Part shown: piece by piece, positions 1,678 through 62,412 of the stretch
Layout: each line of letters starts with the position of its first letter
How positions within the stretch are numbered: position 1 is the first letter of the stretch
Source of the DNA: Candidatus Omnitrophota bacterium
GTDB lineage: Bacteria; Omnitrophota; Gorgyraeia; Gorgyraeales; Gorgyraeaceae
Assembly (NCBI GenBank): GCA_043822665.1
Contig: JBDRBM010000024.1
Coordinates: forward strand, 2,056-66,055
Direction of reading: 5' to 3'
Length of the DNA stretch: 64,000 nucleotides
Program-made: the position numbers and the translations under genes
The notes under the pieces: model-generated
Databases searched by the model: none
Seen by the model: only the letters and a program-made list of their open reading frames with translations
What the model was told of the DNA's origin: nothing

Positions 1678-1720
1678 CTTAACTTGACGAAACTTACAAT
1701 GCAAGCTTCGTCAAGTTAAG
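1678..1720. repeat. Family-A 43-nt TTAA-ended palindromic repeat, copy 1
   Basis: CTTAACTTGACGAAACTTACAATGCAAGCTTCGTCAAGTTAAG. Near-identical 43-nt copies lie at 4684, 34157 and 62370. Confidence 0.9.
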
Positions 1721-1732
1721 GTTCTGCAAGGA

Positions 1733-1770
1733 CACACTGTAGGTGACCCTTAAGGGTCACCTACAGTGTG
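1733..1770. repeat. Family-B GTAGG-headed perfect palindrome centred on CTTAAG, copy 1
   Basis: CACACTGTAGGTGACCCTTAAGGGTCACCTACAGTGTG, followed by GATAAGTTTTCATTTTTTT. Related copies lie at 20964, 55193 and 61496. Confidence 0.9.
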
Positions 1771-1801
1771 GATAAGTTTTCATTTTTTTAGTCACTATCT
1801 A

Positions 1802-1862
1802 TGTGGAAAGATTTTCCTGTGGAAAGATTTTCCTTGACAAAAACATATAAATGGGGTATATT
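1802..1862 (+). promoter_or_regulatory. Sigma70-type promoter of csp, preceded by a 16-nt tandem direct repeat
   Basis: TGTGGAAAGATTTTCC occurs twice (1802-1817, 1818-1833). It abuts TTGACA (1834-1839), a 17-nt spacer and TATATT (1857-1862). This leaves a leader of about 140 nt before the csp ATG. Confidence 0.6.
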
Positions 1863-2006
1863 TATTTAAGAATGTAGTAGAAAAAGTAAGTAGTAAATAA
1901 GGGAGTAGAAAGCTTGGACCGTAAGGTAGAAGAAGTACTCGCCTTGCGGTTTTTTTGTTTCTGTCATTATTTACTATGATATCTAGGGAAAGGAGGGTAG
2001 TGAGTA

Positions 2007-2207
2007 ATGGCAAAAGGCAAAGTAAAATGGTTCAGCAATCAAAAAGGTTATGGATTTATTGCTACTGAGTCAGGTGCTGATGTATTTGTGCATCACACAG
2101 CTATTCAGGGCGATGGCTATAAGACGCTTGAAGAAGGCCAAGAAGTAGAGTTTGAAGTAGAAAAAGGCCCAAAAGGCGATCAAGCCGTAAATGTAGTAAA
2201 GTTATAA
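2007..2207 (+). CDS. cspA: Cold-shock protein (CspA family)
   Basis: 66 aa. [16 protein letters not shown] (RNP1) and DVFVHHTAI (RNP2) motifs. SD GGAGGG lies upstream. Confidence 0.95.
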
Positions 2208-2220
2208 CCGCAGGAACAAT

Positions 2221-3414: not shown

Positions 3415-3421
3415 AACAAAT

Positions 3422-4683: not shown

Positions 4684-4726
4684 CTTAACTTGACGATTCT
4701 TACAATGTAAGTTTCGTCAAGTTAAG
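4684..4726. repeat. Family-A 43-nt palindromic repeat, copy 2
   Basis: CTTAACTTGACGATTCTTACAATGTAAGTTTCGTCAAGTTAAG, 15 nt after the receiver gene stop. Confidence 0.9.
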
Positions 4727-7611: not shown

Positions 7612-7767
7612 TTTAACTTGATATAGTAGGAAATTCCTTTTTAACTCGTTGTAGGGGCGTCAGTTATGGCGCCCGTTGATGTGGGTCGGATGAATCCGAC
7701 CCCTACAAAGTTCGCCCGAAGGGCGTTAAATTTACGAAACTTACATTGTAATAATCGTCAAGTTAAG
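7612..7767. repeat. Composite family-A/C element (156 nt) with family-A-like termini and hairpin cargo
   Basis: Left end TTTAACTTGATATAGTAGGAAATTCCTTTTT. Internal GTAGGGG...CCCCTAC stem (7651-7706) encloses GGGTCGGAT-GAA-TCCGACCC. A CGCCC-GAA-GGGCG hairpin lies at 7713-7725. Right end ACGAAACTTACATTGTAATAATCGTCAAGTTAAG. Confidence 0.85.
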
Positions 7768-11587: not shown

Positions 11588-12274
11588 ATGCCTAAAGAAA
11601 AAATTCTTATAATCGAAGATGATAAAAATATATCCAAGTTGATCAAGTACAACCTGGAAAAGGCTGGCTTTGGATGTGTTGTGGCCAGAACAGGTGAGGA
11701 CGCGCTGGATATTTTAGATAAAGAGGCCGTGGACTTGATGCTGCTCGACATAATGCTTCCAAAGATGGATGGCTTCCAGGTTTGCAGGCAGGTCAAGCAG
11801 GACAAAAAACTCTCCCTGATCCCGGTAATAATGCTGACTGCCAAAGGCGAAGAGGTTGACAGGGTTGTAGGCCTTGAATTAGGAGCGGACGACTATATCG
11901 TTAAACCCTTTAGTCCTAGGGAACTTATATTAAGGATCAAGGCTATTTTGAAACGTAACAAGCCTAAAGAGGATGATAGCAAGAATATCCTTGCCTTTGA
12001 GAAACTAAAGATTGATATCTCCAGGCACAAGGTAACGGTTGATAATAGGAAAGTGGATTTGACCCGCATGGAATTTGAACTGCTCGTTACGCTTATGCGA
12101 CGCAAAGGCCGCGTGCAATCCAGGGATATGCTGTTAAATAATGTCTGGGGCATAGACGCAGAGCTAAATACGCGTACGGTAGACGCCCATGTAAAAAGCC
12201 TTAGGAAAAAATTGGACAAGGCCGGCAGGTTGATTGAGACAGTACGAGGAATCGGGTATAGGTTCAAGGAATAG
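11588..12274 (+). CDS. phoB: OmpR/PhoB-family response regulator
   Basis: Receiver domain (ILIIEDD, LMLLDIMLPKMDG, MLTAKG) plus winged-helix domain (LTRMEFELLVTLM, RTVDAHVKSLRKKL, GIGYRF). It lies directly upstream of a PhoR-like kinase and the pst operon. Confidence 0.85.
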   Translation: MPKEKILIIEDDKNISKLIKYNLEKAGFGCVVARTGEDALDILDKEAVDLMLLDIMLPKMDGFQVCRQVKQDKKLSLIPVIMLTAKGEEVDRVVGLELGADDYIVKPFSPRELILRIKAILKRNKPKEDDSKNILAFEKLKIDISRHKVTVDNRKVDLTRMEFELLVTLMRRKGRVQSRDMLLNNVWGIDAELNTRTVDAHVKSLRKKLDKAGRLIETVRGIGYRFKE

Positions 12275-12283
12275 GAATAAATA

Positions 12284-14080
12284 TTGAAAATAAAGATTCA
12301 TTATAAGATTACTATAATCTTTGCGATAATCATAGCAGGCACTCTTCTAGGCATATATTTATATCTTAATAATACCCTTCGGGAATATACATACCAGAGA
12401 ATCAAGGCAAACCTTACCAGGGAAACGTCTTTTGCCAAATCTTTCATAGAAGAAAAATTCGTAGACACGGCCGATCTTAAATACTTGAATGGCATAGCAG
12501 ATAAGATCGGCAGGAGCCTGTCGTTGCGCGCTACTATTATAAGCCTTGACGGCAGGGTATTGGGAGATTCGGTGCTTAATGAGAAAGGAGTTGAAGAGGT
12601 TGAAAATCACTTGCATAGGCCTGAAATTCAAGAAGCCCTGGACTACGGGACAGGAGAGGCGAGAAGATTCTCTTCGACTGTGAAAAAAAACATGCTCTAT
12701 ATAGCGTCTACTTTCGGCAGTCCAGAGCCCCTGGGTATAATACGCTTATCTATGCCTCTTTCTGAGATAGAACTCCTGTCCGGCCATTTAAAGCGGATGC
12801 TTATAGCATTGCTTTTTCTCGCGTTTATCTTTGCCATGATAATCAGTTTTATAGCTTCGGCTATGATCTCAAGGCCGATAAAACAAATGTCCCTGATAGC
12901 GAATTCCGTAGCCAGCGGGGATTTCTCGAAGAGTATTTCTGTTTCAACCAATGACGAGATAGAGGACCTTGCGCATTCATTTAATTATATGTCACAAGAG
13001 ATATGCTCGAGAATTGAAGAGATTTCATCCAACAGGCTGAGATTGGAAACAGTTCTTTTGAGCATGTTTGAAGGCGTGATAGTGCTTGATGCTAAAGGAG
13101 CAATAGCCCTGATGAATCAGACCCTCAGGGATTTATTAGTTCTTGGAGGGGAACCAGTTGGGAAAAAGCCTATAGAGGTCATACGTAATGTTGAAGTCCA
13201 GGAGATCGCGGAAAAGACCTTGACGTTAGATAGGGGAGTAGAGACGAAAGAGGTCAAGGTCTTGTTTCCAAAGGAAAAGATTTTACTGGTGCATGGAACG
13301 CCTGTCAGGAGAGATGAAAGGGTGGACGGTGCTGTTTTGGTGTTCCATGATATTACTGAATTGAGGCGGTTCGAGATGATCCGCCAGGATTTTGTGGCAA
13401 ATGTTTCCCATGAACTGAGGACACCAGTTGCCAGTATCAAGGGTTACGCGGAGACCCTGTTGGAAGGGGCATTGGAAGATAAAAAGAATGCGCATGATTT
13501 TCTGGAGATAATCCATTCGGATTCTGAGCGCCTTGCCAAACTTATAGATGATATCCTGGAATTATCCAGGATAGAATCAGGCGCGCTTAAGATGATGCTA
13601 AAACCTTACCGCGTAGGACCTATTGTCAAAAGGGCGTTATCAAGCATTAAAAAACAGGTCAGCGCTAAATCTTTAAACATGGAAATGGATATCCCTGAGA
13701 CTTTGCCGGATATCCTGGCGGACGAGGAACAGCTTTTGCGAGTATTTTTAAATCTAATGGACAACGCGGTAAAATATAACAAAGATAAAGGAAAGATAGC
13801 TGTATCAGCATCGGAAAAAGGCGGTTTCATAGAGATACGTGTTTCTGATACAGGAATAGGTATCCCGGAAAAGGACCTGCCCAGGCTATTTGAGAGGTTC
13901 TACCGTGTTGATAAGGCGCGCTCACGGGAGTTAGGCGGCACAGGCCTTGGCCTTTCCATAGTCAAGCATATTGTCCTGTCTCACGGCGGCGAGGTCTCTG
14001 TCAAAAGCGCCCTTGACCAAGGCTCCACCTTCAGTTTTACCATCCCCAAGGCTCAGGAAAATTCCTCTACTGTAAAATAA
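12284..14080 (+). CDS. phoR: PhoR-like sensor histidine kinase (TM, HAMP, PAS, HisKA, HATPase)
   Basis: FVANVSHELRTP (H-box), NLMDNAVKY (N), DTGIGI (G1), GGTGLGLSIV (G2). TTG start. Confidence 0.85.
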   Translation: MKIKIHYKITIIFAIIIAGTLLGIYLYLNNTLREYTYQRIKANLTRETSFAKSFIEEKFVDTADLKYLNGIADKIGRSLSLRATIISLDGRVLGDSVLNEKGVEEVENHLHRPEIQEALDYGTGEARRFSSTVKKNMLYIASTFGSPEPLGIIRLSMPLSEIELLSGHLKRMLIALLFLAFIFAMIISFIASAMISRPIKQMSLIANSVASGDFSKSISVSTNDEIEDLAHSFNYMSQEICSRIEEISSNRLRLETVLLSMFEGVIVLDAKGAIALMNQTLRDLLVLGGEPVGKKPIEVIRNVEVQEIAEKTLTLDRGVETKEVKVLFPKEKILLVHGTPVRRDERVDGAVLVFHDITELRRFEMIRQDFVANVSHELRTPVASIKGYAETLLEGALEDKKNAHDFLEIIHSDSERLAKLIDDILELSRIESGALKMMLKPYRVGPIVKRALSSIKKQVSAKSLNMEMDIPETLPDILADEEQLLRVFLNLMDNAVKYNKDKGKIAVSASEKGGFIEIRVSDTGIGIPEKDLPRLFERFYRVDKARSRELGGTGLGLSIVKHIVLSHGGEVSVKSALDQGSTFSFTIPKAQENSSTVK

Positions 14081-14092
14081 CCCTCTTTAAAC

Positions 14093-14109
14093 TTTACAAA
14101 GATTTTACG
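14093..14109 (+). promoter_or_regulatory. Pho-box-like direct repeat upstream of the porin gene
   Basis: TTTACA-AAGAT-TTTACG, half-sites starting 11 bp apart (14093, 14104). The same TTTACAAAGATTTTAC string precedes pstS. Confidence 0.55.
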
Positions 14110-14177
14110 TTATCTTGAAAATCCCTTCACACGCATAGTCTATACTTTTAATTGAAAACAGAAAGGAGGCAAGAGAC

Positions 14178-15458
14178 ATGAACAGCAAGAGAAAGTTTTA
14201 TTTAGTGGTAAGTTTTTTGTTGGCAGTGTTCGTAGTGCCTGGTCTTTGTTTCGCAGGCGAGATCGATATATTGGTCGCTAAACTTGTAGAAAAAGGAATA
14301 TTGACTCAAGACGAGGCAGAAGAGATTGTTACGGAAACAAAAAAGGAACTCAAGGAGGAGACAGCAAAAGACGAGTCTGATATTATTCCTAAATGGGTCC
14401 AGAACATAAAAATGAAAGGGGACTTGAGGACGCGTTATCAGTGGGAGACACTGAAAGGCAGTGGTGAGAATGAAAGGGTCAGGGTCAGATTAAGGCTTGG
14501 TATGGATGCCAAGGTCAATGAAAAGGCCAATGCCCACGTTCAGCTGGCTACAGGCTCCAGGAACGATCTTCGCTCGACCAACCAGACTCTCGGAGGCAAT
14601 TCCAACGAAGCCTTTGGCCACTATGACATCTGGTTAGACCAGGCATACATGAATTACGCGGCAATGCCGTGGCTTACCATGATGGCCGGTAAGATGCCGT
14701 TAAAAGAAGTATTCTGGGAAACAGGGGACATGCTTTTTGATACTGACATAAATCCTGACGGCACAACGGTCAAATTTGACAAGCCATTGAATGACAATAT
14801 AGGCCTATTCGCCGACGCTGGATGGTGGGTCCTGCAGGATGGCGGTGCAGGCTCGGCAGATGTTACGATGGTCTATCTTCAACCGGGCATAGGCGTAAAC
14901 TTGAATGAAAAAACAAAGCTCAAGACAGCGGTAGGATACATGCAATACAACAACCTGAAGGGAAAAGACCTGGACGTAACAGTAAGTTCTAAATCCAGCG
15001 ACACAAATTCCACAGACGCAGGAGGAGGGTTGAAATACGACTTCAATTCATGGGTTGTTAACGCCGAGTTGGGTATAGATGAGCCGTTTTCTTTTCTCCC
15101 CGCTATTCCTTATATATCGCTATTCGGTGATTACGTGAATAATCCTGATCCGGACAGCGGTAATACCGGATATCTGGTCGGCTGTAAATTCGGCGCAAAA
15201 AAGGTTAAAGAAGGACAATGGCAGGGAAAATATATGTACAGGCATGTCGGAGAAGACGCGGTGCTTGATATATTTCCGGATTCTGACTGCCTTGGCGGTG
15301 CCACTGATGTAAAATCGCACGAACTTGTCTGGGAATATGGATTAGGCAAGAGTCTGATATTCGAGTTGGATTATTGCCTCAGTGAGCGCATAAAGGCCTC
15401 GGAAGATAATTACTCCAAGGAACATCTTTTGCAGGCGGATGTAGTGTATAGTTTTTGA
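14178..15458 (+). CDS. Outer-membrane beta-barrel porin (putatively phosphate/anion-selective, from Pho context)
   Basis: Signal peptide MNSKRKFYLVVSFLLAVFVVPGLCFA, alternating beta-strand-like pattern, C-terminal ...DVVYSF. It sits between phoBR and pstS behind a Pho-box-like repeat. Confidence 0.55.
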   Translation: MNSKRKFYLVVSFLLAVFVVPGLCFAGEIDILVAKLVEKGILTQDEAEEIVTETKKELKEETAKDESDIIPKWVQNIKMKGDLRTRYQWETLKGSGENERVRVRLRLGMDAKVNEKANAHVQLATGSRNDLRSTNQTLGGNSNEAFGHYDIWLDQAYMNYAAMPWLTMMAGKMPLKEVFWETGDMLFDTDINPDGTTVKFDKPLNDNIGLFADAGWWVLQDGGAGSADVTMVYLQPGIGVNLNEKTKLKTAVGYMQYNNLKGKDLDVTVSSKSSDTNSTDAGGGLKYDFNSWVVNAELGIDEPFSFLPAIPYISLFGDYVNNPDPDSGNTGYLVGCKFGAKKVKEGQWQGKYMYRHVGEDAVLDIFPDSDCLGGATDVKSHELVWEYGLGKSLIFELDYCLSERIKASEDNYSKEHLLQADVVYSF

Positions 15459-15484
15459 ATAAAAACTATACACTTTTTATTTTA
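15443..15484 (+). terminator. Rho-independent terminator after the porin gene
   Basis: AGTGTATAGTTTTT-GAAT-AAAAACTATACACT followed by TTTTTATTTT. The left arm overlaps the last codons. Confidence 0.8.
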
Positions 15485-15519
15485 CAAAGATTTTACATTG
15501 GCTTAACATAGGTATTACA
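15481..15519 (+). promoter_or_regulatory. Four phased Pho-box-like hexamers upstream of pstS
   Basis: TTTACA (15481), TTTACA (15492), TTAACA (15503) and ATTACA (15514). The start-to-start spacing is exactly 11 bp, the geometry of PhoB-type tandem boxes. Confidence 0.65.
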
Positions 15520-15555
15520 TTCATAGAATACAATATACTTAAAAAAGGAGGGAAT

Positions 15556-16410
15556 ATGCTTAAGAAATTGTTATTTGTTTTAGTTTTGTCAATGCTTGCT
15601 GTGCCTGTGTTTGCCGCCTCTGGGAAAAACATGATACAGGTCAAGGGGTCTGATACCATGGTCAACTTAGGCCAGGCATGGGCTGAGAGGTATATGGAAG
15701 AGAACCCCGGAGAATTTATTGCTGTAACAGGCGGTGGTTCCGGTACGGGATTTTCAAGCCTCATAAGCGGCACATGCGATATTGCCATGGCCTCAAGGAA
15801 TATCAAAGATAAAGAAATTGTCCTTGCGGAACAGAGAGGCATAAAACCTAATGAGATAAAGGCAGCCCTGGATGGCCTGGCAGTAGTGGTGAATCCTGCG
15901 AATCCAGTTTCCGAGCTTACCATAGACCAGCTTGCAGGTATCTTTACAGGAAGGATTTCAAATTGGAAAGACGTGGGCGGCAATGATGAGAAGATCGTGA
16001 TCCTTTCGCGCGAGGTGAATTCAGGGACGCACGTTTATTTTAAGGAACATGTGCTAAGGAAAGGCGATCCCAATTCCACAGAAGAATACGCGCCGCGCGC
16101 CCTTCTTCTCTCGTCCTCTCAGGCGATTGCCGATGAAGTGGCTGGGAATCCAGCCGCGATAGGTTACTATGGGATGGGGTATATCTATAAAAAACAAAAA
16201 TCCATAGCAGTCGCAAAAGATAAGGACTCAGAATACATAGAGCCCACAATAGAAAATGTAGTAAAGGGAAGATATTCCATATCAAGGCCGTTATTCTTGT
16301 ATACAAATGGTATGCCTCAGGACCTGGTAAAGAAATTCGTAGATTTTGTGCTGTCAAAAGAGGGGCAGGATATTGTTTTGGCTACTGATTTTGTCCCAAT
16401 TAAAAAATAA
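15556..16410 (+). CDS. pstS: Phosphate ABC transporter substrate-binding protein
   Basis: Signal peptide, then GSDTM, GGGSGTG, ASR, SREVNSGT motifs of PstS/PBP2. Confidence 0.9.
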   Translation: MLKKLLFVLVLSMLAVPVFAASGKNMIQVKGSDTMVNLGQAWAERYMEENPGEFIAVTGGGSGTGFSSLISGTCDIAMASRNIKDKEIVLAEQRGIKPNEIKAALDGLAVVVNPANPVSELTIDQLAGIFTGRISNWKDVGGNDEKIVILSREVNSGTHVYFKEHVLRKGDPNSTEEYAPRALLLSSSQAIADEVAGNPAAIGYYGMGYIYKKQKSIAVAKDKDSEYIEPTIENVVKGRYSISRPLFLYTNGMPQDLVKKFVDFVLSKEGQDIVLATDFVPIKK

Positions 16411-17276
16411 TGCGTAAGATCAAAGAATTTATCATTGAAAAGCTCATACTAATCTGCGGAGTTACTTCGATATTTTTTGTAGTATTGATATTCTTATTTC
16501 TCCTAAAAGAAGGCCTGGCGATATTCAAGACTGTAAGCCCTTTTAAATTTCTCTTCGGTGAAAAGTGGTATCCTATTTCAGAGCCAGGCCAATTCGGGAT
16601 ACTTCCTCTTATATTAGGCTCGCTCATGGTTACAATAGGCGCGGCAGTCATCTCTGTTCCTATAGGAGTAGCCTGTGCGGTTTATATCGCGGAGATAGCC
16701 CCTACTCAAATAAAGGAAATCCTCAAAGGCGGCATAGAGCTATTAGCTGCCATACCAAGCGTTGTCCTGGGTTTTATAGGTATGGTGACACTCGTGCCAT
16801 TGGTAAAAAATATTTTTCATTTGCCTACTGGTCTTACTGCTTTGTCAGGTTCAATAATGCTGGCGTTTATGGCCATGCCGACCATAGTCTCAATAGCCGA
16901 GGACGCGCTTTATTCAGTTCCAAAAAATTATAAAGAAGGTGCCTTTGCGCTGGGGGCAACGCACTGGCAGATGATATACAGGGTAATGCTACCTGCGGCC
17001 TCGAGCGGCATCTTCGCTGCTGTGATGCTTGGTATAGGGAGGGTAATCGGAGAGACAATGGCAGTAATGATGATCACAGGGAATGCCGCTGTTATACCTC
17101 ACAGCATCTTAGTGCCGGTCAGGACCCTTACTGCCACTATTGCGGCTGAAATGGGAGAGGCAGTGGTCGGGAGCGAGCATTACTTTGCCTTATTTGCTAT
17201 CGGCATAGTCCTGTTTCTAATCAGTTTCGCGGTAAATGTGACAGCAGACTTATTTTTACATAAGAGGCAGAGATGA
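16410..17276 (+). CDS. pstC: Phosphate ABC transporter permease PstC
   Basis: 6-TM permease with the EAA-type loop (EDALYSVPKNYKEGAFALGATHWQ). Operon position after pstS. Confidence 0.9.
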   Translation: MRKIKEFIIEKLILICGVTSIFFVVLIFLFLLKEGLAIFKTVSPFKFLFGEKWYPISEPGQFGILPLILGSLMVTIGAAVISVPIGVACAVYIAEIAPTQIKEILKGGIELLAAIPSVVLGFIGMVTLVPLVKNIFHLPTGLTALSGSIMLAFMAMPTIVSIAEDALYSVPKNYKEGAFALGATHWQMIYRVMLPAASSGIFAAVMLGIGRVIGETMAVMMITGNAAVIPHSILVPVRTLTATIAAEMGEAVVGSEHYFALFAIGIVLFLISFAVNVTADLFLHKRQR

Positions 17277-17350
17277 TGGTTCGACGCGCCCTTGATATCA
17301 AAAATGTCAAGGGCTTGCTCACCATTAAGAAGAGTTGAAAGAGTTGAAAA

Positions 17351-18199
17351 ATGAGAAACCCTTATAGGACACAGAGGATAGCGTTTTTCTTTTTATTTTT
17401 AGCGACCCTATTGATAGTGGTGCCGGTGGGTTTGATTATCGTAATTATTATTCAGAAGGGCCTGCCCGGCATAAGTTGGGAATTCCTTTCAGATATGCCG
17501 AGACAGGGCATGCGCGCGGGAGGGATATTCCCGGCAATAGTAGGGTCTATATATTTAGTGACAGGCGCTGTTGTATTTGCCCTACCCATAGGGCTCCTGG
17601 CAGCAATATATCTGAGTGAATACGCGAAAGAGAATTTTCTTACAAGGCTTATAAAGTTAGCTATCATTAATCTTTCAGGTGTGCCGTCGGTGGTCTACGG
17701 GCTTTTTGGTTTGGCTATTTTTGTGGTATTTTTCAAATTTGGCGCGTCAATACTTTCAGGTTCGCTTACGTTAAGCATTATGATACTCCCTATAATTATT
17801 ACTACTTCACGCGAAGCCCTGGAAAGTGTACCTTATTCATTCCGCGAGGTGAGCCTGTCTCTGGGCGCGAGTAAATGGCAGACAATAAGACATATTGTCC
17901 TACCCAATGCCATACCAGGCATATTGACAGGGACTATACTGGGCCTGGGTAGGGCTGCCGGCGAGACAGCGCCTATTTTGTTTACAGTGGCTGCTTTTTA
18001 CCTGCCGAAACTGCCGCATTCTATCTTTGATCAGGCAATGGCGCTCCCCTATCACCTATATGTTATTTCAACCCAGGTGCCGAATGTCGATGAAAAAATA
18101 AGGTACGGGACTGCTTTTGTGCTCCTGGCAATGGTTTTATTTATGAATCTCGTGGCAATCGTCATCCGTTATAAATTCAGAAAGAAGAAAAAATGGTGA
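17351..18199 (+). CDS. pstA: Phosphate ABC transporter permease PstA
   Basis: REALESVPYSFREVSLSLGASKWQTI, GRAAGETAP. Operon position. Confidence 0.9.
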   Translation: MRNPYRTQRIAFFFLFLATLLIVVPVGLIIVIIIQKGLPGISWEFLSDMPRQGMRAGGIFPAIVGSIYLVTGAVVFALPIGLLAAIYLSEYAKENFLTRLIKLAIINLSGVPSVVYGLFGLAIFVVFFKFGASILSGSLTLSIMILPIIITTSREALESVPYSFREVSLSLGASKWQTIRHIVLPNAIPGILTGTILGLGRAAGETAPILFTVAAFYLPKLPHSIFDQAMALPYHLYVISTQVPNVDEKIRYGTAFVLLAMVLFMNLVAIVIRYKFRKKKKW

Positions 18200-18939
18200 A
18201 ATTTGAGATAAAAAACCTGAATATCTGGTTTGGGCCTTTGCATGTATTGAAGGACGTAAATATAGATGTCCAGGCCAATGAGATACTAAGCGTGATCGGA
18301 CCCGCTAATAGCGGCAAGACAACTTTTTTAAGGATGTTGAACCGGATGAACGAGCTTGAACCGGATTTCAGAATGTCAGGAGAGGTAAATTTCGAAAAAG
18401 ATGATATCGGTAGGATGGATGTAGAATTATTGCGTCGGAAAGTGGGCATGGTATTTGCTTTGCCCCTGCCTCTCCCCCTGTCTATATTTGATAACGTGGC
18501 TTACGGGATGAGGATGCATGGCATAAAGAGCAAGAGTAAAGTAAAGGCTAAAGCAGAGGAAGCCTTGAGACAGGGATATTTATGGGATGAGGTAAAAGAT
18601 AGATTAAACGAATCAGCTTTTAAATTATCCGGCGGCCAACAGCAGCGTCTTTGTATCGCAAGGACGCTCGCGGTCGAACCGGACGTCATTTTATTTGACG
18701 AGCCATGTTCAGGGCTGGATCCTATTTCTACGGCAAAAGTAGAAGACGCAATGATAAAATTAAAACAGCAATATACCATTGTTTTGGTAACCAATAATGT
18801 AAAACAGGCAGCGAGGGTAGGGGACAGGACAGCCTTCTTTTTGAACGGAGAACTAATTGAGATGGATAAAACAGACAGGATATTTACCGCGCCGCGCGAT
18901 AAGCGGACAGACGGTTACATAAGAGGGAAATTTGGTTAA
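18193..18939 (+). CDS. pstB: Phosphate ABC transporter ATP-binding protein, divergent copy 1 (Q-loop and H-loop substituted)
   Basis: Walker A GPANSGKT, signature LSGGQQQRL and Walker B ILFDEP are intact. The Q-loop reads VGMVFALP (Q to A, codon 18457-18459). The H-loop reads LVTNN (H to N, codon 18793-18795). Confidence 0.85.
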
Positions 18940-19694
18940 TGGCAAAGATAGTCACTAAAAACTTAAATCTATGGTATGGAGATTTTCACGCCCTGAAGGA
19001 CATAAACTCTAATTTTGAAGCAAAGAGGATTACTGCTATAATAGGGCCTTCAGGGTGTGGTAAGTCGACATTGCTCAGGGTCTTTAACCGGATGAATGAT
19101 CTCATAGATGGCGTGCGTACCAGAGGTGAGGTTTCGCTCGAGGGAGCCAATATCTTAAATCCTCACACGGATCTCGTTAAGTTGCGCAGAAAAGTTGGCA
19201 TGGTTTTTCAAAGACCCAATCCATTCCCTTTATCCATTTATGAAAATATTGTATTCGGAGAAAAGATTCACGGGGATAATACAAAACGGGACAGATTGAA
19301 TGAGATTGCTGAAAAGAGCTTAAAGGGCGTTCTTTTGTGGGAGGAGTTAAAGGATAAGCTGAATCGCTCGGCTCTGTCATTATCGTTAGAGCAAAGACAG
19401 AGGCTCTGCATCGCAAGGCTTCTCGCTGTAACGCCTGATGTGTTATTGATGGATGAGCCTTGCTCTGCCTTAGATCCTCAGGCGACTGCCAGGATAGAAG
19501 AATTAATGCGTGAATTAAAAAATAATTATACTATAATAATAGTGACGCATAACATGCAGCAGGCTGCCCGTGTTTCAGATGATACGGGTTTTATGCTTCT
19601 GGGTGAATTGATAGAGTTCGGAAAGACGCAGGATATATTTACTGCGCCGACAGATAATCGTACGGAAGATTATATTACAGGAAGATATGGATAA
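18939..19694 (+). CDS. pstB: Phosphate ABC transporter ATP-binding protein, copy 2 (ABC signature degenerate)
   Basis: Walker [11 protein letters not shown]-loop VGMVFQRP, Walker B LLMDEP and H-loop IVTHNMQQA are canonical. The signature is LSLEQRQRL instead of LSGGQQQRL (19380-19394). Confidence 0.9.
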
Positions 19695-19704
19695 GGGGGC
19701 TTAT

Positions 19705-20370
19705 ATGGAACGGCATTTTGATGAGGAGCTGAAAGATCTTAAAACGGATATTTTAAAGATGGGGGCATATGCGGAGGAGGCTATTTACAAATCCATTGAA
19801 GCGCTGAAGGATCGCGATAGAAAGCTCGCCAAAAGTGTTATTGAGAATGACACCGTTGTCGATAAGCTGGAACTTGCTATAGATGAAAAATGTATAGATC
19901 TCATGGCGCGGTACCAGCCTATGGCCAAAGACCTGCGCTTTATCACAACCGGCATGAAGATAAACGCTGAGTTGGAAAGGATAACTGACATAGCCGTGGA
20001 TATAGCACAGCGTACATTGGAAATCGTGGATAAACCACATCTTAAACCTCTGGTTGATACGCCAAAACTGACAGCCATTGCCCAGGACATGGTAAAAATG
20101 GCAATTGACTCATTTGTAAAAGGCGATATTGAACTGGCAAAAAAAGTCCTGTTATCTGACGCTGAAGCTGATGAGCTGCGTAATTTGATACAAAAGGAAC
20201 TCATAGAAGATTATATGATGAAAGATGGCTCTACTGCTCCGAGGGCAGTCCAGCTTTTATTAATAGCGCGCTTCCTTGAACGGATATGCGATCACGCGAC
20301 CAATATTGCCGAGGATGTGATATACATGGTCCGGGCCGAGGTCGTAAAACATCACCCTGAGAAGCTCTAA
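19705..20370 (+). CDS. phoU: Phosphate signalling regulator PhoU
   Basis: Two PhoU repeats (A.DLERI.D.A.NIAE-type: ELERITDIAVDIAQ and FLERICDHATNIAEDV). I prefer ATG 19705 (SD AAGGGGG) to the track start at 19687. Confidence 0.9.
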   Translation: MERHFDEELKDLKTDILKMGAYAEEAIYKSIEALKDRDRKLAKSVIENDTVVDKLELAIDEKCIDLMARYQPMAKDLRFITTGMKINAELERITDIAVDIAQRTLEIVDKPHLKPLVDTPKLTAIAQDMVKMAIDSFVKGDIELAKKVLLSDAEADELRNLIQKELIEDYMMKDGSTAPRAVQLLLIARFLERICDHATNIAEDVIYMVRAEVVKHHPEKL

Positions 20371-20823: not shown

Positions 20824-20936
20824 AGAAGATAGGCGAGAAATACAGATGCAATGTCTGTGGCAATGAGGTTACAGTGACAAAGGTCGGAGGGGGAGAACTG
20901 GTCTGCTGCGGTCAGCCAATGGAAAAACTCTCTTAA
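20814..20936 (+). CDS. Desulforedoxin-like small metal-binding protein (40 aa, below the ORF-track cutoff)
   Basis: [40 protein letters not shown]. The C-x2-C ... CC pattern and GGG-LVCCG closely follow D. gigas desulforedoxin as I recall it. It overlaps the arsC stop by 10 nt. Its TAA lies inside the repeat at 20932. Confidence 0.7.
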
Positions 20937-21020
20937 CTTGATATAGTAGGAAATTCCTTTTTGTAGGCACACATTAGTAGGGGACCCTTAAGGGTCCCCT
21001 ACTAATGTGTGCCTATTAAG
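20932..21020. repeat. Composite family-C/B element between convergent genes (includes the 51-nt palindrome 20964-21014)
   Basis: CTTAACTTGATATAGTAGGAAATTCCTTTTTG, then TAGGCACACATTAGTAGGGGACCCTTAAGGGTCCCCTACTAATGTGTGCCTA, then TTAAG. Likely a bidirectional terminator. Confidence 0.9.
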
Positions 21021-38514: not shown

Positions 38515-39192
38515 AAAAATTGAAATACCATAATAAATGAAAAGATAGATAACACTTTTTGGTCAGGACCAGTGCCTTGAGAGATTTTGCCACAACGAAC
38601 CCCATATAGTGTCCTTTTGCCCTGGTAAGGCCTACAAAAAGACGCTCGGCCTAATAGATGCAAATGACTATAAAGCATTACGTAGAGTTAGGCCTCGCTC
38701 CATTTTCTTTTGACAGGCAATGTCTGTAATGATGCGGTAATCCTGGATTACGCAAAAGAAAAAGGCTTTTCTTAAGGCCTCACCAGGGCAAAAGGACCAG
38801 CGATAAAGTGCTCAGGGCTTACTCAAGCGCTGATGTGCTGAGAGTGTAACCCGACATCGAAAATATTACAAAAAAATGTAAATACTTTATAGAAGAACGC
38901 ATTGTCTGTTTAAGCGCATGACCAACCCTGTGAGCGAATTGAAAATTTAGCCTTTTATACTGTATTTTGGCGGTTTTTAAAAGGGCGAGAACTGTCCGAG
39001 CCCCACACCTTCTGCCGAAGGCAGTTGGTGTGGGGTGAGTTTTCTCGCCCCCGACAAAATGCTGTCTAAAAGACGGCCCCATGTAAACCTGACATAGATG
39101 AGGCAAATCTTCATTTGAGCGAGCAGGGCTGGCTATGCGCTTAAGAGTGTAGCATAACCATTCAAATATTACAGGCTCGATTAACAATATAC
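38515..39192. other. ORF-free, hairpin-rich region; candidate structured ncRNA(s), unclassified
   Basis: No credible ORF on either strand. A 22-nt stem (38611-38632 with 38776-38797, one mismatch) encloses nested hairpins. A three-tier hairpin spans 38983-39050. A 10-bp long-range pairing joins 38910-38919 with 39135-39144. Confidence 0.35.
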
Positions 39193-47930: not shown

Positions 47931-48114
47931 CTTAACTTGATAGTATAGGAATTTCCTTTTATTGTACAAACGCTTGTCATTGCGAGGCCGAAGGCCGAAG
48001 CAATCTCAAAAGATCCTTCAGCAGCTCCTGTTAGTAGCTGCTTCAGGATTAAATTCGCACTTATCTCTTACGCCCCTTTCAGGAGCGTAAGAGATGTGCT
48101 TAATTTAAGTTAAG
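47931..48114. repeat. Composite family-C element (184 nt) with multiple cargo hairpins
   Basis: The left end CTTAACTTGATAGTATAGGAATTTCCTTTTATTGTAC matches the left ends at 7612, 20932 and 55157. Cargo includes CATTGCGAGGCCGAAGGCCGAAGCAATC (GGCCGAA twice) and the ATCTCTTACGC...GCGTAAGAGAT stem. The right end AATTTAAGTTAAG is degenerate. Confidence 0.8.
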
Positions 48115-48157
48115 GAGATTGAACCTTGGGCATATAGGTGTTATAATATATAACACT

Positions 48158-48796
48158 ATGCAGGCAGTCAGTGCGCAGGAGATGCATGAGTTGGATCGCA
48201 GGACAATAGAGGATTTTGGCGTGCCGTCCATTGTCCTTATGGAAAATGCAGGTAGATGCGTAAGCGAGACAGGCATAGAGATGCTCAAGGCTTCTGCCAG
48301 TAATAATGCAGCAGTATTTTGCGGTACAGGTAATAATGGGGGCGATGGTTTTGTAGCTGCGAGATATCTTGCAAGACAAGGTATAGATGTGACAATATTT
48401 ATAGTCGGCGAGAACCATGGCCTGAAAAATGACCCGCTTACAAATTTACATATCCTGCGCAGAATGGGGGTTAGAGTAAAAGAAATCGCTACGCCGGTAA
48501 ACATAAATACAGGTTTAATAATAGACGCCATATTCGGGATAGGATTAGAAGGAGAGGTAAAAGACCCTGCCCGTAAAATCATTATTGACTTGAACCAAAA
48601 GAATGTACCTGTATTGGCAGTTGATGTTCCGTCGGGGCTAGACGCAGACACAGGAGAAATATTAGGCCAGGCCATAAAAGCAACAAAGACAGTGACCATG
48701 CAGTTTCCTAAAAAAGGTTTTTATATCAATAGAGGCCCTGAACATGCAGGCGAGATTGTGGTAGCGGATATAGGGATAATCGGAAAAGTTAGATAA
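48158..48796 (+). CDS. nnrE: NAD(P)H-hydrate epimerase (YjeF N-terminal domain)
   Basis: LMENAG, FCGTGNNGGDG, AVDVPSGLDADTG. I prefer ATG 48158 to the non-ATG track start at 48119. Confidence 0.85.
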   Translation: MQAVSAQEMHELDRRTIEDFGVPSIVLMENAGRCVSETGIEMLKASASNNAAVFCGTGNNGGDGFVAARYLARQGIDVTIFIVGENHGLKNDPLTNLHILRRMGVRVKEIATPVNINTGLIIDAIFGIGLEGEVKDPARKIIIDLNQKNVPVLAVDVPSGLDADTGEILGQAIKATKTVTMQFPKKGFYINRGPEHAGEIVVADIGIIGKVR

Positions 48797-55156: not shown

Positions 55157-55244
55157 CTTAACTTGCAGTATAGGATTTTCCTTTTTGTAGGCCCACATTA
55201 GTAGGGGACCCTTAAGAGTCCCCTACTAATGTGGATAACTTGAC
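55157..55244. repeat. Composite family-C/B element after otsB (includes the palindrome 55193-55233)
   Basis: CTTAACTTGCAGTATAGGATTTTCCTTTTTGTAGG, then CCACATTAGTAGGGGACCCTTAAGAGTCCCCTACTAATGTGG, then ATAACTTGAC. It is preceded by the small hairpin GCAGCAT-CTT-ATGCTGC. Confidence 0.9.
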
Positions 55245-55277
55245 TTATTTCCGGATACATAATATTATATAGAAGTC

Positions 55278-55949
55278 ATGGAAGATACTGCTATAAGAAA
55301 TAATGAAAAGACATTCAGGTTTTGCACAAGGCTGCATCTCAGGGTGCTTACAGGCCTGAAGGCCTCTAATATAAGAGAACTCCTGAGGCTGATAAAAAAG
55401 GTGCCTGGCTCATCTATCTATTATCATACCCACAGATCTCTTCAGCAACACAGGTATCTATCTCCTGAGCCGCCAAATGATTTTGCTCACTGGATAAAAA
55501 ATGCCCTGAACGAAGAGGTGCTTGCGGAAAAGATCGCCTCAATAGATACGATACGGCACTCTTCTATCCGTTCTCTTAGAAATGAAATAGCAAGTACAAT
55601 AAGAAACTATATAAAGAAAAACCCGAAGGTAAAGCTCAGGTTTACAACAGGCAATAAGGTTTTTCATTTTATTAAAAGCGTAAGCCTAATAATGCCCCTG
55701 CCTTACGTGGCAGGGAATCTGAAGGAATTTGTAGACATATTGAAAAAGATTACCCCAGATTCAATATATTTTCACATGTTTGAGGCAAGGCTGAGGCTGG
55801 ACAGGGAGACTAATGACTTTTCTCATTGGCTTGAGACATCTTTATTAGAGGGTGAACTTGCCAAAAAGATAAAATCCTTGGATCCCTACACCTATACTAT
55901 GGAAGACTTGAAGAAAAAGGTTATTAAGATAGCGGAAGAAAGACTCTAG
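55278..55949 (+). CDS. Uncharacterised protein built from two ~100-aa tandem repeats (possibly DUF5752-type)
   Basis: The internal duplication is visible by eye: ...SSIYYHTH...PPNDFAHWIKNALNEEVLAEKIASID... versus ...DSIYFHMF...ETNDFSHWLETSLLEGELAKKIKSLD.... The family name is from memory and unverified. Confidence 0.45.
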   Translation: MEDTAIRNNEKTFRFCTRLHLRVLTGLKASNIRELLRLIKKVPGSSIYYHTHRSLQQHRYLSPEPPNDFAHWIKNALNEEVLAEKIASIDTIRHSSIRSLRNEIASTIRNYIKKNPKVKLRFTTGNKVFHFIKSVSLIMPLPYVAGNLKEFVDILKKITPDSIYFHMFEARLRLDRETNDFSHWLETSLLEGELAKKIKSLDPYTYTMEDLKKKVIKIAEERL

Positions 55950-60248: not shown

Positions 60249-61477
60249 GGTTCGTCGCTGATTTTCACATTCATTCTAAATACAGCCGCGCCACAAGTCC
60301 GCAAATGGAAGTCAAAACCTTATCCGAGTTCGCGAAATTAAAAGGGATATCGCTTCTTGGCACAGGAGATTTTACCCACCACCTCTGGCTTGAGGAATTA
60401 AAAGACGCGCTGAAAGACTCGGGCAGCGGCTTCTTCGAGTATAATAATGTAAATTTTATACTTACCGGAGAAATATCGAGTATTTATTCCAAGGCAGGCA
60501 AGGTCAGGAAGATTCACAATATAGTATTTGCCCCGAGCTTTGACATTGTCGATAAAATAAATTCCGCGCTTTCAGGGTATGGAAACCTCGCGTCTGACGG
60601 AAGGCCTATTATCGGCATAGACGCGAAAGACCTGGCAGAGGTCTTATTCGGAATCAGTAAGGAGATATTTCTGGTGCCTGGCCATATCTGGACACCGTGG
60701 TTTTCTCTCTTTGGTTCCAAATCAGGTTTTGATTCAATAGAGGAGTGTTTTGAAGAATACGCCAAAGACATCTATGCCCTGGAAACAGGGCTTTCATCAG
60801 ACCCTGGCATGAACTGGCGCTGGAGCAAGCTTGACAGGTTCAGCCTGATATCTAATTCAGATTCACACAGTCCGCAGAAAATAGGCAGAGAAGCGAATAT
60901 ATTTGATACAGAAATGAGTTATAAAGCCGTAATAGACGCCCTTAAGTCAAAAGACAATAAGCAATTTCTCTCTACAATTGAATTTTTTCCGGAAGAGGGT
61001 AAGTATCATTTTGACGGACACAGGAACTGTAAACTACGTTTAAGTCCGGTTGAGACAAAAAAGAATAAAAATATCTGTCCTGTCTGCGGAAAACCCATTA
61101 CAGTAGGCGTAATGAACAGGGTCAATGAACTTGCTGACAGGCCTGAGGGGTTTGAGCCTGAGAACAGGATCCCGTACCAGAGGATGATACCTCTGGCAGA
61201 GATAATCGCGGGTGTCCTGGGCGTGGGATATAGCTCCAAGGCAGTAGGGAGTGAGTATCGCGCTATAATACCTCGGTTCGGGACAGAACTTGAGGTCCTG
61301 ACAAAGATAAAAGACGAAGAACTTCTCAGTAAGGTACCGCGGAAGATAGCAAAGGCTATAATAAACGTGAGAAAAGGAAATGTAAATATATTACCCGGGT
61401 ATGATGGCGAATATGGTAAGATAGAGATATTAAAAAAAGAAGAAGCTGTTGGCGAAAAACAGATGGATCTATTTTGA
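60245..61477 (+). CDS. Endonuclease Q-like PHP-domain nuclease with a zinc ribbon
   Basis: ADFHIHSKYSRA, LLGTGDFTH, SNSDSHSP, GKYHFDGH, CPVCGKPITVGVMNRV, PLAEIIAGVLG, PGYDGEYGKI. These parallel Pyrococcus/Bacillus EndoQ blocks as I recall them. Confidence 0.75.
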   Translation: MRFVADFHIHSKYSRATSPQMEVKTLSEFAKLKGISLLGTGDFTHHLWLEELKDALKDSGSGFFEYNNVNFILTGEISSIYSKAGKVRKIHNIVFAPSFDIVDKINSALSGYGNLASDGRPIIGIDAKDLAEVLFGISKEIFLVPGHIWTPWFSLFGSKSGFDSIEECFEEYAKDIYALETGLSSDPGMNWRWSKLDRFSLISNSDSHSPQKIGREANIFDTEMSYKAVIDALKSKDNKQFLSTIEFFPEEGKYHFDGHRNCKLRLSPVETKKNKNICPVCGKPITVGVMNRVNELADRPEGFEPENRIPYQRMIPLAEIIAGVLGVGYSSKAVGSEYRAIIPRFGTELEVLTKIKDEELLSKVPRKIAKAIINVRKGNVNILPGYDGEYGKIEILKKEEAVGEKQMDLF

Positions 61478-61495
61478 GCCTTCAGCCGTCACAAT

Positions 61496-61535
61496 CCACA
61501 ATGTAGGTGACCCTTAAGGGTCACCTACATTGTGG
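61496..61535. repeat. Family-B palindrome, copy 4 (inside the pyr operon)
   Basis: CCACAATGTAGGTGACCCTTAAGGGTCACCTACATTGTGG, followed by ATAACTTTTGG and preceded by CACAATC-CACAATG. Confidence 0.9.
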
Positions 61536-61552
61536 ATAACTTTTGGACAAAA

Positions 61553-62374
61553 ATGAAAGATATTAAAGCAAATATATTATCCAATAAAGAAATTGCCCCG
61601 GGATATTTTAAGATGGCCCTGGACGCGCCCTATATAGCCAAAAACGCAAAGCCCGGGCAGTTTGTCCAGGTGAGATGCAGTGATGGATTTGACCCGCTTT
61701 TAAGGCGGCCGCTTAGTATACATCGGGTATCGGGTATCGGGGATCGGGTATCGGGTATCGATATTCTATACGAGGTGATTGGCAAGGGGACAGAAGTCTT
61801 GTCTAGAAAAAAAGCCGGCGAGACCATAGATATTTTAGGTCCATTAGGCAATGGATTTACTTTATCACCATCCACCATCCACCATCCACCATCCACCATA
61901 ATAATTGCCGGCGGCATTGGAGTCGCGCCGCTAATTTTTCTTGCAGAAAAATTAGCGGAAATCCAAAATCCAAAATCCAAAATCCAAAATATAGTTCTAT
62001 TAGGCGCCAGGACAAAGAGCCTGATTTTATGCGAAAAAGATTTCAAGAAAACAGGAGCCAAAGTTTATATTGCCACTGATGATGGAAGTAAAGGATATAA
62101 GGGCTTAGTAACGAAGTTATTTGAAAAAGTTTTACGATCCACGATCCACGATCCACGATCCACGGTATGCGCATGCGGGCCGCGGCCAATGCTCGAATCT
62201 ATTGCCAGGATGTGCAATGAAAAAGGTGTAGAATGTGAGATTTTGCTCGAAGAAAAAATGGCGTGTGGTGTCGGCGCATGTCTTGGATGCGCTGTAAAGG
62301 TCAGGGATAATGGGTATAAATTAGCCTGTAAAGACGGCCCAGTATTCAAGGCAAACACCATAATATGGCCTTAA
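61553..62374 (+). CDS. pyrK: Dihydroorotate dehydrogenase (class 1B) electron-transfer subunit
   Basis: GQFVQV, RRPLSI (FAD motif), GPLGNGF, AGGIGVAPL, ACGPRPM, C-terminal CGVGACLGCAV [2Fe-2S] motif. I prefer ATG 61553. The track GTG at 61532 lies inside the palindrome. Confidence 0.9.
   Translation: MKDIKANILSNKEIAPGYFKMALDAPYIAKNAKPGQFVQVRCSDGFDPLLRRPLSIHRVSGIGDRVSGIDILYEVIGKGTEVLSRKKAGETIDILGPLGNGFTLSPSTIHHPPSTIIIAGGIGVAPLIFLAEKLAEIQNPKSKIQNIVLLGARTKSLILCEKDFKKTGAKVYIATDDGSKGYKGLVTKLFEKVLRSTIHDPRSTVCACGPRPMLESIARMCNEKGVECEILLEEKMACGVGACLGCAVKVRDNGYKLACKDGPVFKANTIIWP
61722..61760 (+). repeat. Heptanucleotide tandem array ATCGGGT x5.5 inside pyrK
   Basis: atcgggt atcgggt atcgggg atcgggt atcgggt atcg. 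It encodes ...HRVSGIGDRVSGID..., directly after RRPLSI. Confidence 0.95.
61866..61900 (+). repeat. Heptanucleotide tandem array CACCATC x5 inside pyrK
   Basis: caccatc x4 plus caccata. It encodes SPSTIHHPPSTI, between GPLGNGF and AGGIGVAPL. Confidence 0.95.
61959..61990 (+). repeat. Heptanucleotide tandem array AAATCCA x4.5 inside pyrK
   Basis: aaatcca x4 plus aaat. It encodes EIQNPKSKIQNI. Confidence 0.95.
62134..62165 (+). repeat. Heptanucleotide tandem array ACGATCC x4.5 inside pyrK
   Basis: acgatcc x4 plus acgg. It encodes LRSTIHDPRSTV, directly before CACGPRPM. Confidence 0.95.
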
Positions 62375-62412
62375 CTTGACAATTCTTACATGCCACATTT
62401 AGTCAAGTTAAG
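62370..62412. repeat. Family-A 43-nt palindromic repeat, copy 4
   Basis: CTTAACTTGACAATTCTTACATGCCACATTTAGTCAAGTTAAG. The pyrK stop TAA (62372-62374) lies in its left TTAA. Confidence 0.9.

Follow-up and report, generated by a model that had tools for sequence, protein, structure and literature searches.

Introduction

No other domesticated, vertically inherited transposase that keeps up a population of tiny repeats is as well documented as the REP-associated tyrosine transposases (RAYTs), which accompany short (about 20-45 nt) repetitive extragenic palindromes (REPs), and what is known of these systems comes almost entirely from Proteobacteria and from REPs with a GTAG tag. Such REP/RAYT systems were reportedly treated by Nunvar in 2010. 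Here we analyse a dense family of 43-nt palindromes in a 64-kb stretch of DNA from a Candidatus Omnitrophota bacterium (contig JBDRBM010000024.1; "the window" throughout means this whole stretch of 64,000 nt), and we argue that it is most likely a small REP-like hairpin family spread by a domesticated RAYT that acts on single strands and is encoded outside the window.

REP/RAYT systems, also discussed under the names 'REPtrons' and REPINs, are described from Escherichia coli and Pseudomonas (Bertels & Rainey 2011, PMC3116915). RAYT genes are single-copy, vertically inherited and housekeeping-like (PMC5581495), the hairpin of the classical REP has at one end a conserved tag of unpaired bases, GTAG or CGTC (PMC3733652), and the structure 4ER8 is that of E. 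coli TnpA-REP bound to a REP hairpin (PMC3479197). A related group has been described under several names, and we have treated the terminal inverted repeat-associated tyrosine transposases (TIRYTs, of the 'TIRtron') of Di Nocera 2013 (PMC3733652), TnpA-Y1 subclass 2.1 of Quentin 2018 (PMC6006769) and RAYT Group 1 of Bertels 2017 (PMC5581495) as equivalent. Subclass 2.1 is characterised by a HuH motif NHVH/NH[YF]H, a Y motif YIELNP/Y[IV]HLNP, an SS motif and a C-terminal helix-turn-helix (HTH), and is listed as 'REP: no' (PMC6006769, Table 1 for the motifs). The repeats that flank TIRYT genes share GGGGWSAS (PMC3733652), and the 16-mers flanking Group 1 genes have about 12 copies on average (PMC5581495).

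Palindromes in the window

A search of the window for the arm CTTAACTTGAC with at most one mismatch gives 12 matches where 1.22 would be expected, and none of 100 shuffles attained 12. An earlier note on this DNA, made from its sequence, had described a minimal 43-nt form at 1678, 4684, 34157 and 62370, the third copy a perfect palindrome, and all four lie exactly at these positions:

1678-1720, no strand: short 43-nt palindrome (CTTAACTTGAC...GTCAAGTTAAG), with a DNA hairpin of -13.4 kcal/mol, z -7.1 (arm search)
4684-4726, no strand: short 43-nt palindrome in the asymmetric, putative master form, with a GATTC arm and a GAAAC arm (arm search, fold)
34157-34199, no strand: short palindrome, perfect, centred on T (inverted-repeat analysis, fold)
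62370-62412, no strand: short palindrome with the right inner arm damaged, at the pyrK/pyrD junction; its TAA is the pyrK stop (fold)

With the four long forms described below there are eight repeat loci in the 64 kb, which are intergenic or overlap their neighbours only at stop codons. The dense family of the earlier note therefore stands, with a count of eight and not nine, because the ninth match (34007-34017) is a lone 11-mer within a coding region. Folded as single-stranded DNA, the 43-mers have energies of -7 to -20 kcal/mol and z scores of -4.8 to -10.2. The copy at 34157-34199 provides the TAA stop of a radical-SAM gene (34195-35040, minus strand) and ends 13 nt ahead of the start of the next gene (33082-34143, minus strand). 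This placement is common: about half of the copies in the window and in its closest relative, the genome JAHIYJ01 described below, contain the stop codon of the gene upstream, as TAA at positions 3-5 or TGA at positions 8-10, and the next start codon is mostly 7-14 nt beyond the element's right end. At the gathering threshold Rfam reported no RNA family anywhere in the window, and a tRNA search of the window found none.

Two readings of the palindrome as a regulatory site were rejected. A sigma-70 or extracytoplasmic function (ECF) promoter formed by the palindrome itself has no -10 box at a usable distance from the TTGAC of the arm, as judged by reading the sequence; the GAAAC...CGTC spacing varies in relatives, and promoter-like sites stand beside the elements instead. 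A transcription-factor site of the FNR/CRP type (TTGAC...GTCAA) would have fixed spacing, and the arms are 10 to 25 bp apart across lineages.

Occurrence in other genomes

The family extends beyond the window into several Candidatus Omnitrophota metagenome-assembled genomes (MAGs). A scan for the two-arm pattern CTTAACTTGAC-N15-27-GTCAAGTTAAG over 185,579 species-representative genomes (596 Gb) returned 39 stretches, of which 18 are in the Candidatus Omnitrophota MAG JAHIYJ01 and 10 in JAHIEN01; the rest are in JAHIPS01, JBHHYQ01, MAGs labelled Elusimicrobia and Planctomycetia, and others. The matches in MAGs of Prevotellaceae, Chlamydiales, Saprospiraceae and Reyranellaceae are probably unrelated long hairpins that contain the 11-mer by chance. 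JAHIYJ01 is the closest MAG, syntenic with the window at about 75-80% nucleotide identity, and its 23 copies (in the 18 stretches) have the same inner sequence as those of the window, while the copies of JAHIEN01 share the ends and have a different inner stem. Related lineages each have a multi-copy variant of their own, for example AAGTTGACACTCTGACAATGTCAGAGTGTCAACTT and CTAACTTTACA...TGTAAAGTTAG. Across the clade the foot of the hairpin, (C)TTAACTTGAC(A/G), is usually kept and the apex drifts between genomes. A full-text literature search on palindromic repeats in Omnitrophota returned nothing relevant.

The window and JAHIYJ01 together give 27 copies. In 21 of these, the asymmetric ones, a GATTC-type arm is paired with an arm of the (G/A/T)AAAC type; another 4 are symmetric, and 2 defied classification. 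The asymmetry leaves a fixed T.T/T.T mismatch on one strand and A.A on the other. The copies that flank the transposase-like gene described in the next section have this same asymmetric form, which would fit descent of the family from master copies.

In 80 metagenomic loci retrieved around relatives of PyrD the exact arm is almost missing (numbers with L denote the loci retrieved for this analysis, from these and other genomes). Most of the relatives at 72-80% PyrD identity have a palindrome of the same design where the pyrK stop meets the pyrD start, with arms that co-vary (AAGTTGACAAAGTGACATTGTCACTTTGTCAACTT, CCTTGACACTTTAAAGTGTCAAGG and CAACTTTACATTTTGACATTGTTAATTTGTAAAGTTG are examples), and some have a GTAGG hairpin there or nothing.

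A transposase-like gene flanked by the palindromes

The earlier note had reported that no transposase is present in the window, and we agree: neither a Pfam scan of about 50 of its open reading frames (ORFs), which are ordinary housekeeping genes, nor tblastn with the RAYT described here found one. The IS200/IS605-type TnpA (RAYT) that the note had suggested as a search target does exist in the sister genome JAHIYJ01, where it is flanked by the window's repeats. The gene was singled out by an all-against-all comparison of the ORFs in repeat-bearing loci:

L025 1310-2221, minus strand: RAYT-like gene of JAHIYJ01, 303 aa (Pfam, NCBIfam, fold search)

Its product matches Pfam Y1_Tnp (E 2e-8) and has a C-terminal HTH, and its top NCBIfam match is REP_Tyr_transpos, the REP-associated tyrosine transposase (E 4e-14, 53 bits). 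The protein has the motifs NHLH and YIHLNPVKAGIV..YRWSS, and both histidines of the HUH motif NHLH and the tyrosine of YIHLNP are invariant in 34 homologues. In an AlphaFold (AF2) model with a pLDDT of 85, the best fold match in the PDB is 4ER8 (E 1.7e-6, target TM 0.75, 150 aligned columns), which ranks ahead of the IS608, ISDra2 and IS200 TnpA structures. Among the searches of the PDB, that with the predicted fold alone was decisive, sequence searches giving no significant match. By its motifs and HTH tail the protein fits TnpA-Y1 subclass 2.1, that is RAYT Group 1 or TIRYT: NHLH is a near fit and YIHLNP an exact fit, WSS is present, and the C-terminal domain is HTH_23/HTH_7.

Three copies of the window's 43-mer surround the gene, at L025 1294-1336, 2241-2283 and 2347-2389. 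The first overlaps the gene's stop, the second ends 19 nt before the start, and the third is on the far side of a TTGAAAGAAAA...TATAT promoter-like sequence. The palindrome at 1294-1336 itself encodes the C-terminal end of the RAYT-like protein, its last eight residues (NLTKLTM, then stop).

The association extends well beyond JAHIYJ01. Among 483 homologues at E <= 1e-5, those with a named source are mostly from Omnitrophota, and most homologue clusters are on few contigs each. Five genomes share one gene order at this place: homoserine dehydrogenase, PALP enzyme, RAYT, HTH_3, Tricorn_N and a giant protein. The palindrome of its own genome flanks the RAYT orthologue in each of the eight genomes examined, JAHIYJ01 included; among these are an 'Elusimicrobia'-labelled MAG, a WOR-3 MAG and a distant Omnitrophota MAG, at 42-46% protein identity. 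At L123 and L124 the upstream and downstream copies are inverted relative to each other. Over 7 of these loci (98 kb), 30 of 33 arm matches fall between -320 and +120 nt from the RAYT gene. The foot TAACTT(G/T)ACA is common to most RAYT loci, and the apex differs.

The MAG JBHHYQ01 has a paralogous RAYT-like gene (L013; 291 aa, 33% identical), flanked at 252-314 and 1206-1337 by a different inverted hairpin pair, AACGCAATACGCAACATTTT...AAAATGTTGCGTATTGCGTT. Because this paralogue has its own pair, the sequences suggest several RAYT/REP pairs per lineage.

Turnover at gene junctions and the case for host selection

In an operon shared by JAHIYJ01 and JAHIEN01 the element occupies different junctions, and the empty junctions are gaps of only 1-5 nt. 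Genomes that are 88-92% identical often have different small elements at the same junction, and over the range of 88-98% identity the occupant of a junction differs between related genomes. From these sequence comparisons the family is one of concerted, genome-specific evolution with rapid replacement. With regard to the insertion polymorphism that the earlier note had proposed to look for in related genomes, differences in occupancy were thus found, and a TTAA duplication was not. An empty-site test for target duplication across species was abandoned since the junctions are too remodelled to read. Beside the 43-mer family, other tiny junction elements occur in the relatives L054, L057 and L060 (CCGTTCGCCGAACGG-AAAATTTT-CCGTTCGGCGAACGG).

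The alternative that survives best is that the palindrome is an intercistronic hairpin selected by the host, either a signal for the processing or stability of mRNA, such as an RNase III-type stem of about 20 bp, or a site on DNA bound by a host protein; the association with the RAYT would then be secondary. The same-design palindrome with co-varying arms at the orthologous pyrK/pyrD junction over 72-80% PyrD identity is what such selection would produce, and the stop codon held by about half of the copies, the 7-14 nt left before most next starts, and the similarity of the arm to the -35 context of local promoter-like sites all point the same way. Against it, the same junctions are filled by other types of element, or by none, in close relatives, the consensus is homogeneous within each genome and peculiar to it down to the conserved mismatch, the orientation of the copies is unbiased relative to transcription, and copies also lie between convergent and between divergent genes. 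We therefore regard host selection as an improbable sole cause; it is in any case only a partial rival, being compatible with exaptation of a mobile family. An mRNA stem, the donation of stop codons, or a -35-like box of the kind found at 55240 are candidate host roles for hairpins of the REP-like family that we favour.

Long forms and the second repeat family

The earlier note had described longer forms that share a module at 7612, 20932, 47931 and 55157. These are present, except that the first starts at 7613 (7612 is T, not C). Each begins with a left-arm fragment and a 21-nt module like TATAGTAGGAAATTCCTTTTT, which is exact at 7622 and 20942 and a variant at 47941 and 55166:

7613-7621, plus strand: left arm fragment TTAACTTGA, preceding the module (sequence; analogy with the L054/L055 polymorphism)
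7622-7642, plus strand: 21-nt module TATAGTAGGAAATTCCTTTTT, with a TGnTATAGT extended -10-like motif and a GGAAATTCC palindrome (sequence comparison)
7643-7724, plus strand: cargo, a branched TTGTAGGGG...CCCCTACAA hairpin and GCCCGAAGGGC (fold)
7725-7767, no strand: short palindrome, complete though degenerate, with its end 10 nt ahead of the ATG of the 7778 gene (sequence)
20932-20941, plus strand: left arm fragment CTTAACTTGA, whose TAA is the stop of a small upstream ORF (sequence)
20942-20962, plus strand: module, exact copy (sequence comparison)
20964-21015, no strand: 52-nt perfect palindrome of the GTAGG-headed family, TAGGCACACATTAGTAGGGGACCC / GGGTCCCC... (inverted-repeat analysis, fold)
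47931-47940, plus strand: left arm fragment CTTAACTTGA (sequence)
47941-47961, plus strand: module variant TAGTATAGGAATTTCCTTTTA (sequence comparison)
47962-48104, plus strand: cargo, several unrelated hairpins including one of the GTCATTGCGAG...GCAATC type, which is also present in relatives (sequence comparison)
48105-48115, plus strand: right-arm remnant TTTAAGTTAAG (sequence)
55157-55165, plus strand: left arm fragment CTTAACTTG (sequence)
55166-55186, plus strand: module variant CAGTATAGGATTTTCCTTTTT (sequence comparison)
55193-55238, no strand: GTAGG-headed hairpin with tail TGTGGATAA (inverted-repeat analysis, fold)
55235-55245, plus strand: arm-like ATAACTTGACT, whose TTGACT is the -35 of a TTGACT-17-TATTAT promoter-like site (promoter-motif reading)
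1733-1775, no strand: GTAGG-headed hairpin of the second repeat family, with tail TGTGGATAA (inverted-repeat analysis, fold)
61494-61539, no strand: solitary GTAGG-headed hairpin with a DnaA-box tail, just 5' of pyrK (inverted-repeat analysis, fold)

What had been called variable hairpin cargo does consist of hairpins, most of which belong to a second, GTAGG-headed repeat family that also occurs as solitary copies (1733-1775 and 61494-61539). The long form at 7613-7767 does end in a complete, if degenerate, right palindrome (7725-7767). The TGnTATAGT of the module resembles an extended -10 promoter by sequence. At both orthologues of long-form sites that were available in JAHIYJ01, those of window 20932 and 55157, a plain 43-mer stands in place of the long form.

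The sole clean polymorphism that we found concerns a unit led by this module. L054 and L055 are 97.7% identical and both have a short palindrome at pyrK/pyrD, and L054 has an extra 119 nt which read, on the other strand, TAACTTGA / TATAATAGGAAATTCCTTTTTGCGCGGAGC...GCTCCGCGC / TAACTTGA; the insert is thus a module-led unit within a REP arm, between 8-bp TAACTTGA direct repeats. A homologue of this unit is found at another place in L060. In the window, a first copy of the 8-bp repeat TAACTTGA lies in the arm at 7613-7621 and a degenerate second copy, TAAATTTA, at 7727-7734, so that by analogy the stretch 7613-7767 would fit the same pattern of insertion. The long form at 55157 is ambiguous in this respect, since its second repeat overlaps a sequence that is found after other GTAGG hairpins too. 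The 8-bp repeats around the L054 insert could be a true duplication or, just as well, the two sites cut in a 'peel and paste' reaction of the IS200 kind. The long forms are accordingly composites, with a second unit in or beside a REP arm, and not, as had been supposed, single elements with cargo between terminal inverted repeats.

Several further observations concern these elements and their surroundings. The GTCATTGCGAG...GCAATC junction element is found in relatives and forms part of the 47931 long form (47975-48005). The tail TGTGGATAA of the GTAGG hairpins is a perfect DnaA-box 9-mer, TTATCCACA, at 1767-1775, 55230-55238 and 61531-61539; the window has four perfect DnaA boxes against 0.53 expected, and three of the four are at the feet of GTAGG hairpins. 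This is intriguing because some RAYT-like proteins have a DnaA-C-like domain (PMC6006769). A 1.6-kb island at L055 3226-4817, missing from the 97.7%-identical L054, adjoins a GTAGG-type hairpin and contains a 305-aa ORF without a Pfam match and a 71-aa zinc-ribbon-like ORF. Strong sigma-70-like promoter matches are found at 55240-55280 (TTGACT-17-TATTAT) and at 48119-48160 (TTGAAC-17-TATAAT with TG); each stops only 9-10 nt short of an ATG codon, a spacing that points to leaderless first genes. At 48119 the ORF list calls a TTG start instead of the ATG.

The ends of the element

The family had first been read as a MITE (miniature inverted-repeat transposable element) or REP-like non-autonomous family; its dispersal, its REP-like character and its modular long forms are borne out, and the MITE part of that reading is not. 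A MITE of this kind would consist of two 21-bp terminal inverted repeats mobilised in trans by a DDE transposase, an IS630-, IS5- or piggyBac-like enzyme, with insertion into CTTAAG and duplication of TTAA. The termini C-TTAA-C...G-TTAA-G, found in all copies of the window and JAHIYJ01, would fit such an origin, as would the long forms with their arm-like ends and variable interiors and the 8-bp direct repeat around the module-led insert of L054. TTAA is self-complementary, and the window alone therefore cannot tell a duplication from a stem. The relatives can: their outer bases are TAAAC...GTTTA (L125), TAAC...GTTA (L126) and AAAG...CTTT (L120), which are inverted complements and not direct repeats, and therefore belong to the hairpin stem. 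The C and G beyond TTAA are likewise conserved. Insertion into CTTAAG with TTAA duplication is thus unsupported. Neither a DDE transposase nor an insertion sequence (IS) with matching ends is present in the window, and none was noticed in the retrieved loci; a Y1 transposase is consistently associated instead. IS200/IS605-family transposases are known to make no target duplications. A DDE-type MITE is in our view very unlikely.

An origin as integron-type attC sites can be dismissed. It would draw on the likeness of CTTAAC/GTTAAG to the inverse core RYYYAAC and core GTTRRRY, and on the hairpin being imperfect at a fixed mismatch inside the stem. However, the window has no integron integrase and no array of co-oriented promoterless cassettes, what would have to count as 'cassettes' are irregularly spaced housekeeping operons of either strand (pyrK and pyrD included), the associated enzyme is a Y1/HUH protein, and we know of no attC site as short as 43 nt.

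Other features of the window

An imperfect inverted repeat of about 235 nt at 38909-39145, rod-like and bounded by TTAAGCGCAT...ATGCGCTTAAG, has an RNA minimum free energy of about -109 kcal/mol (z about -9.8) on both strands, is without an Rfam match and is 87% identical to JAHIYJ01 L008 1021-1235. Just upstream of it (38611-38797) there is a second inverted-repeat structure, which matches JAHIEN01 L007, and the two share one 680-nt divergent spacer; they could be non-coding RNAs or a large palindromic element. A phosphate regulon block at 11588-20370 (phoB-like regulator, phoR-like kinase, porin, pst-type ABC transporter and phoU) is missing between the same flanking genes in JAHIYJ01 L029.

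Discussion

The family is assigned to the REP/RAYT type and not to DDE-type MITEs because the 43-mers bracket a TnpA-REP-like gene, because the own-genome palindrome flanks that gene in all eight genomes, and because the foot of the hairpin is usually conserved. In the mechanism that we propose, the 43-nt palindromes would be REP-type elements that form a hairpin of about 20 bp in single-stranded DNA, and would be served by one syntenic, RAYT-like Y1/HUH gene with a C-terminal HTH, presumably encoded elsewhere in the window's own genome. The RAYT may recognise the foot of the folded hairpin, cut and rejoin single-stranded DNA and so copy hairpins into intergenic junctions, which would explain the homogeneous, genome-specific variants. 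The insertions to survive would be those with room enough between the stop codon upstream and the ribosome-binding site that follows, and hence the element would often supply the upstream stop and end 7-14 nt before the next start. Long forms would be secondary composites, in which a unit led by TATAGTAGGAAATTCCTTTTT carries other hairpins, mostly GTAG-headed REPs, and has been placed in or beside a REP arm at TAACTTGA.

A number of observations weigh against this interpretation. The RAYT gene lies outside the window, the RAYT scores 53-60 bits where the NCBIfam equivalog cut-off is 80, and phmmer and profile searches of the protein against PDB sequences gave nothing significant. Two of the eight RAYT loci have a less conserved foot (L120 AAAGTAGACA and L121 AAAACTACACA). 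Copies of the asymmetric form are oriented independently of gene strand (7 vs 10) and of local GC skew, a null result that counts because a replication-coupled single-strand mechanism might leave such a correlation. The comparisons yielded no 43-mer insertion that is recent and clean and has exact junctions, and the cases of presence and absence are from diverged genomes with remodelled junctions. The same-design palindrome at pyrK-pyrD in most relatives could reflect selection for a host function. Finally, unlike the classical REP, the CTTAACTTGAC family is without a GTAG or CGTC tag: its GACG/CGTC is paired within the stem, and relatives have GACA/TGTC. The cargo hairpins at 1733, 20964, 55193 and 61494 do have GTAGG.

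A wider proposal can be made tentatively. The TAACTT(G/T)ACA hairpins might perhaps form a third REP superfamily beside those tagged with GTAG and with CGTC, served by the HTH-bearing RAYT subclass (2.1, Group 1 or TIRYT), for which no REPs are listed in the literature, and actively rewiring operon junctions in Omnitrophota and neighbouring candidate phyla, for the foot resembles the local -35 context and is also a landing site for small elements. If this were true, junctions would be rewired through stop codons, -35 boxes and insertion sites.

Comparison with known systems

The likeness to REP/RAYT systems is extensive. In both, short imperfect extragenic palindromes, their consensus specific to each genome, recur many times and lie mostly between co-directional or convergent genes, and a palindrome-flanked Y1/HUH gene, apparently one per genome, stands in conserved synteny; the predicted fold of its product is nearest to TnpA-REP. 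The differences are in the details of the partners. The conserved part of the hairpin is its paired foot TAACTT(G/T)ACA, and the hairpin, at about 20 bp, is the longer one and is almost perfect. The protein has about 300 aa and a C-terminal HTH, whereas the 4ER8 chain of TnpA-REP has 165 aa. The hosts are Omnitrophota, WOR-3 and 'Elusimicrobia'-labelled MAGs, in contrast to the Proteobacteria in which REP/RAYT systems are known.

Like a TIRYT gene, the gene described here is flanked by non-GTAG repeats that may be self-complementary and are moderately abundant. The flanks differ from those of TIRYTs in being hairpins with a TAACTT(G/T)ACA foot and without GGGGWSAS, which are scattered through the genome as well, co-diversify with the protein (8/8 genomes) and are dense, with eight loci in 64 kb. 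The family shares with IS200/IS605 elements and their miniature derivatives, the palindrome-associated transposable elements (PATEs), a Y1/HUH enzyme and the recognition of single-stranded ends as hairpins, and insertion by a short specific sequence without true duplication, as in IS200/IS605, would also explain the TAACTTGA repeats. It differs from them in that the gene is apparently single-copy and syntenic and not a multi-copy IS, and in that neither distinct left-end and right-end hairpins nor a TnpB were seen. The Correia elements of Neisseria are small, intergenic, palindromic MITEs that are co-transcribed with their neighbours and can donate stop codons and promoter boxes, and they have DDE-type terminal inverted repeats and a TA target duplication. 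The 43-mers resemble them in being small, intergenic, palindromic and transcribed with their neighbours, but for the 43-mers DDE-type ends and target duplication are both unsupported.

For the annotation of Omnitrophota MAGs these hairpins matter since they overlap stop codons, occupy ribosome-binding sites and are probably a cause of breaks in assemblies. A concrete, testable candidate pair of enzyme and substrate is also at hand in the 303-aa protein with the 43-mer, in which the RAYT is of the HTH-bearing type reported to lack REPs. The same logic as in REP/RAYT is met here in an uncultivated, deep-branching phylum with a different hairpin signature; the kind of system is known, but the phylum is unstudied and the signature of the sequence unusual.

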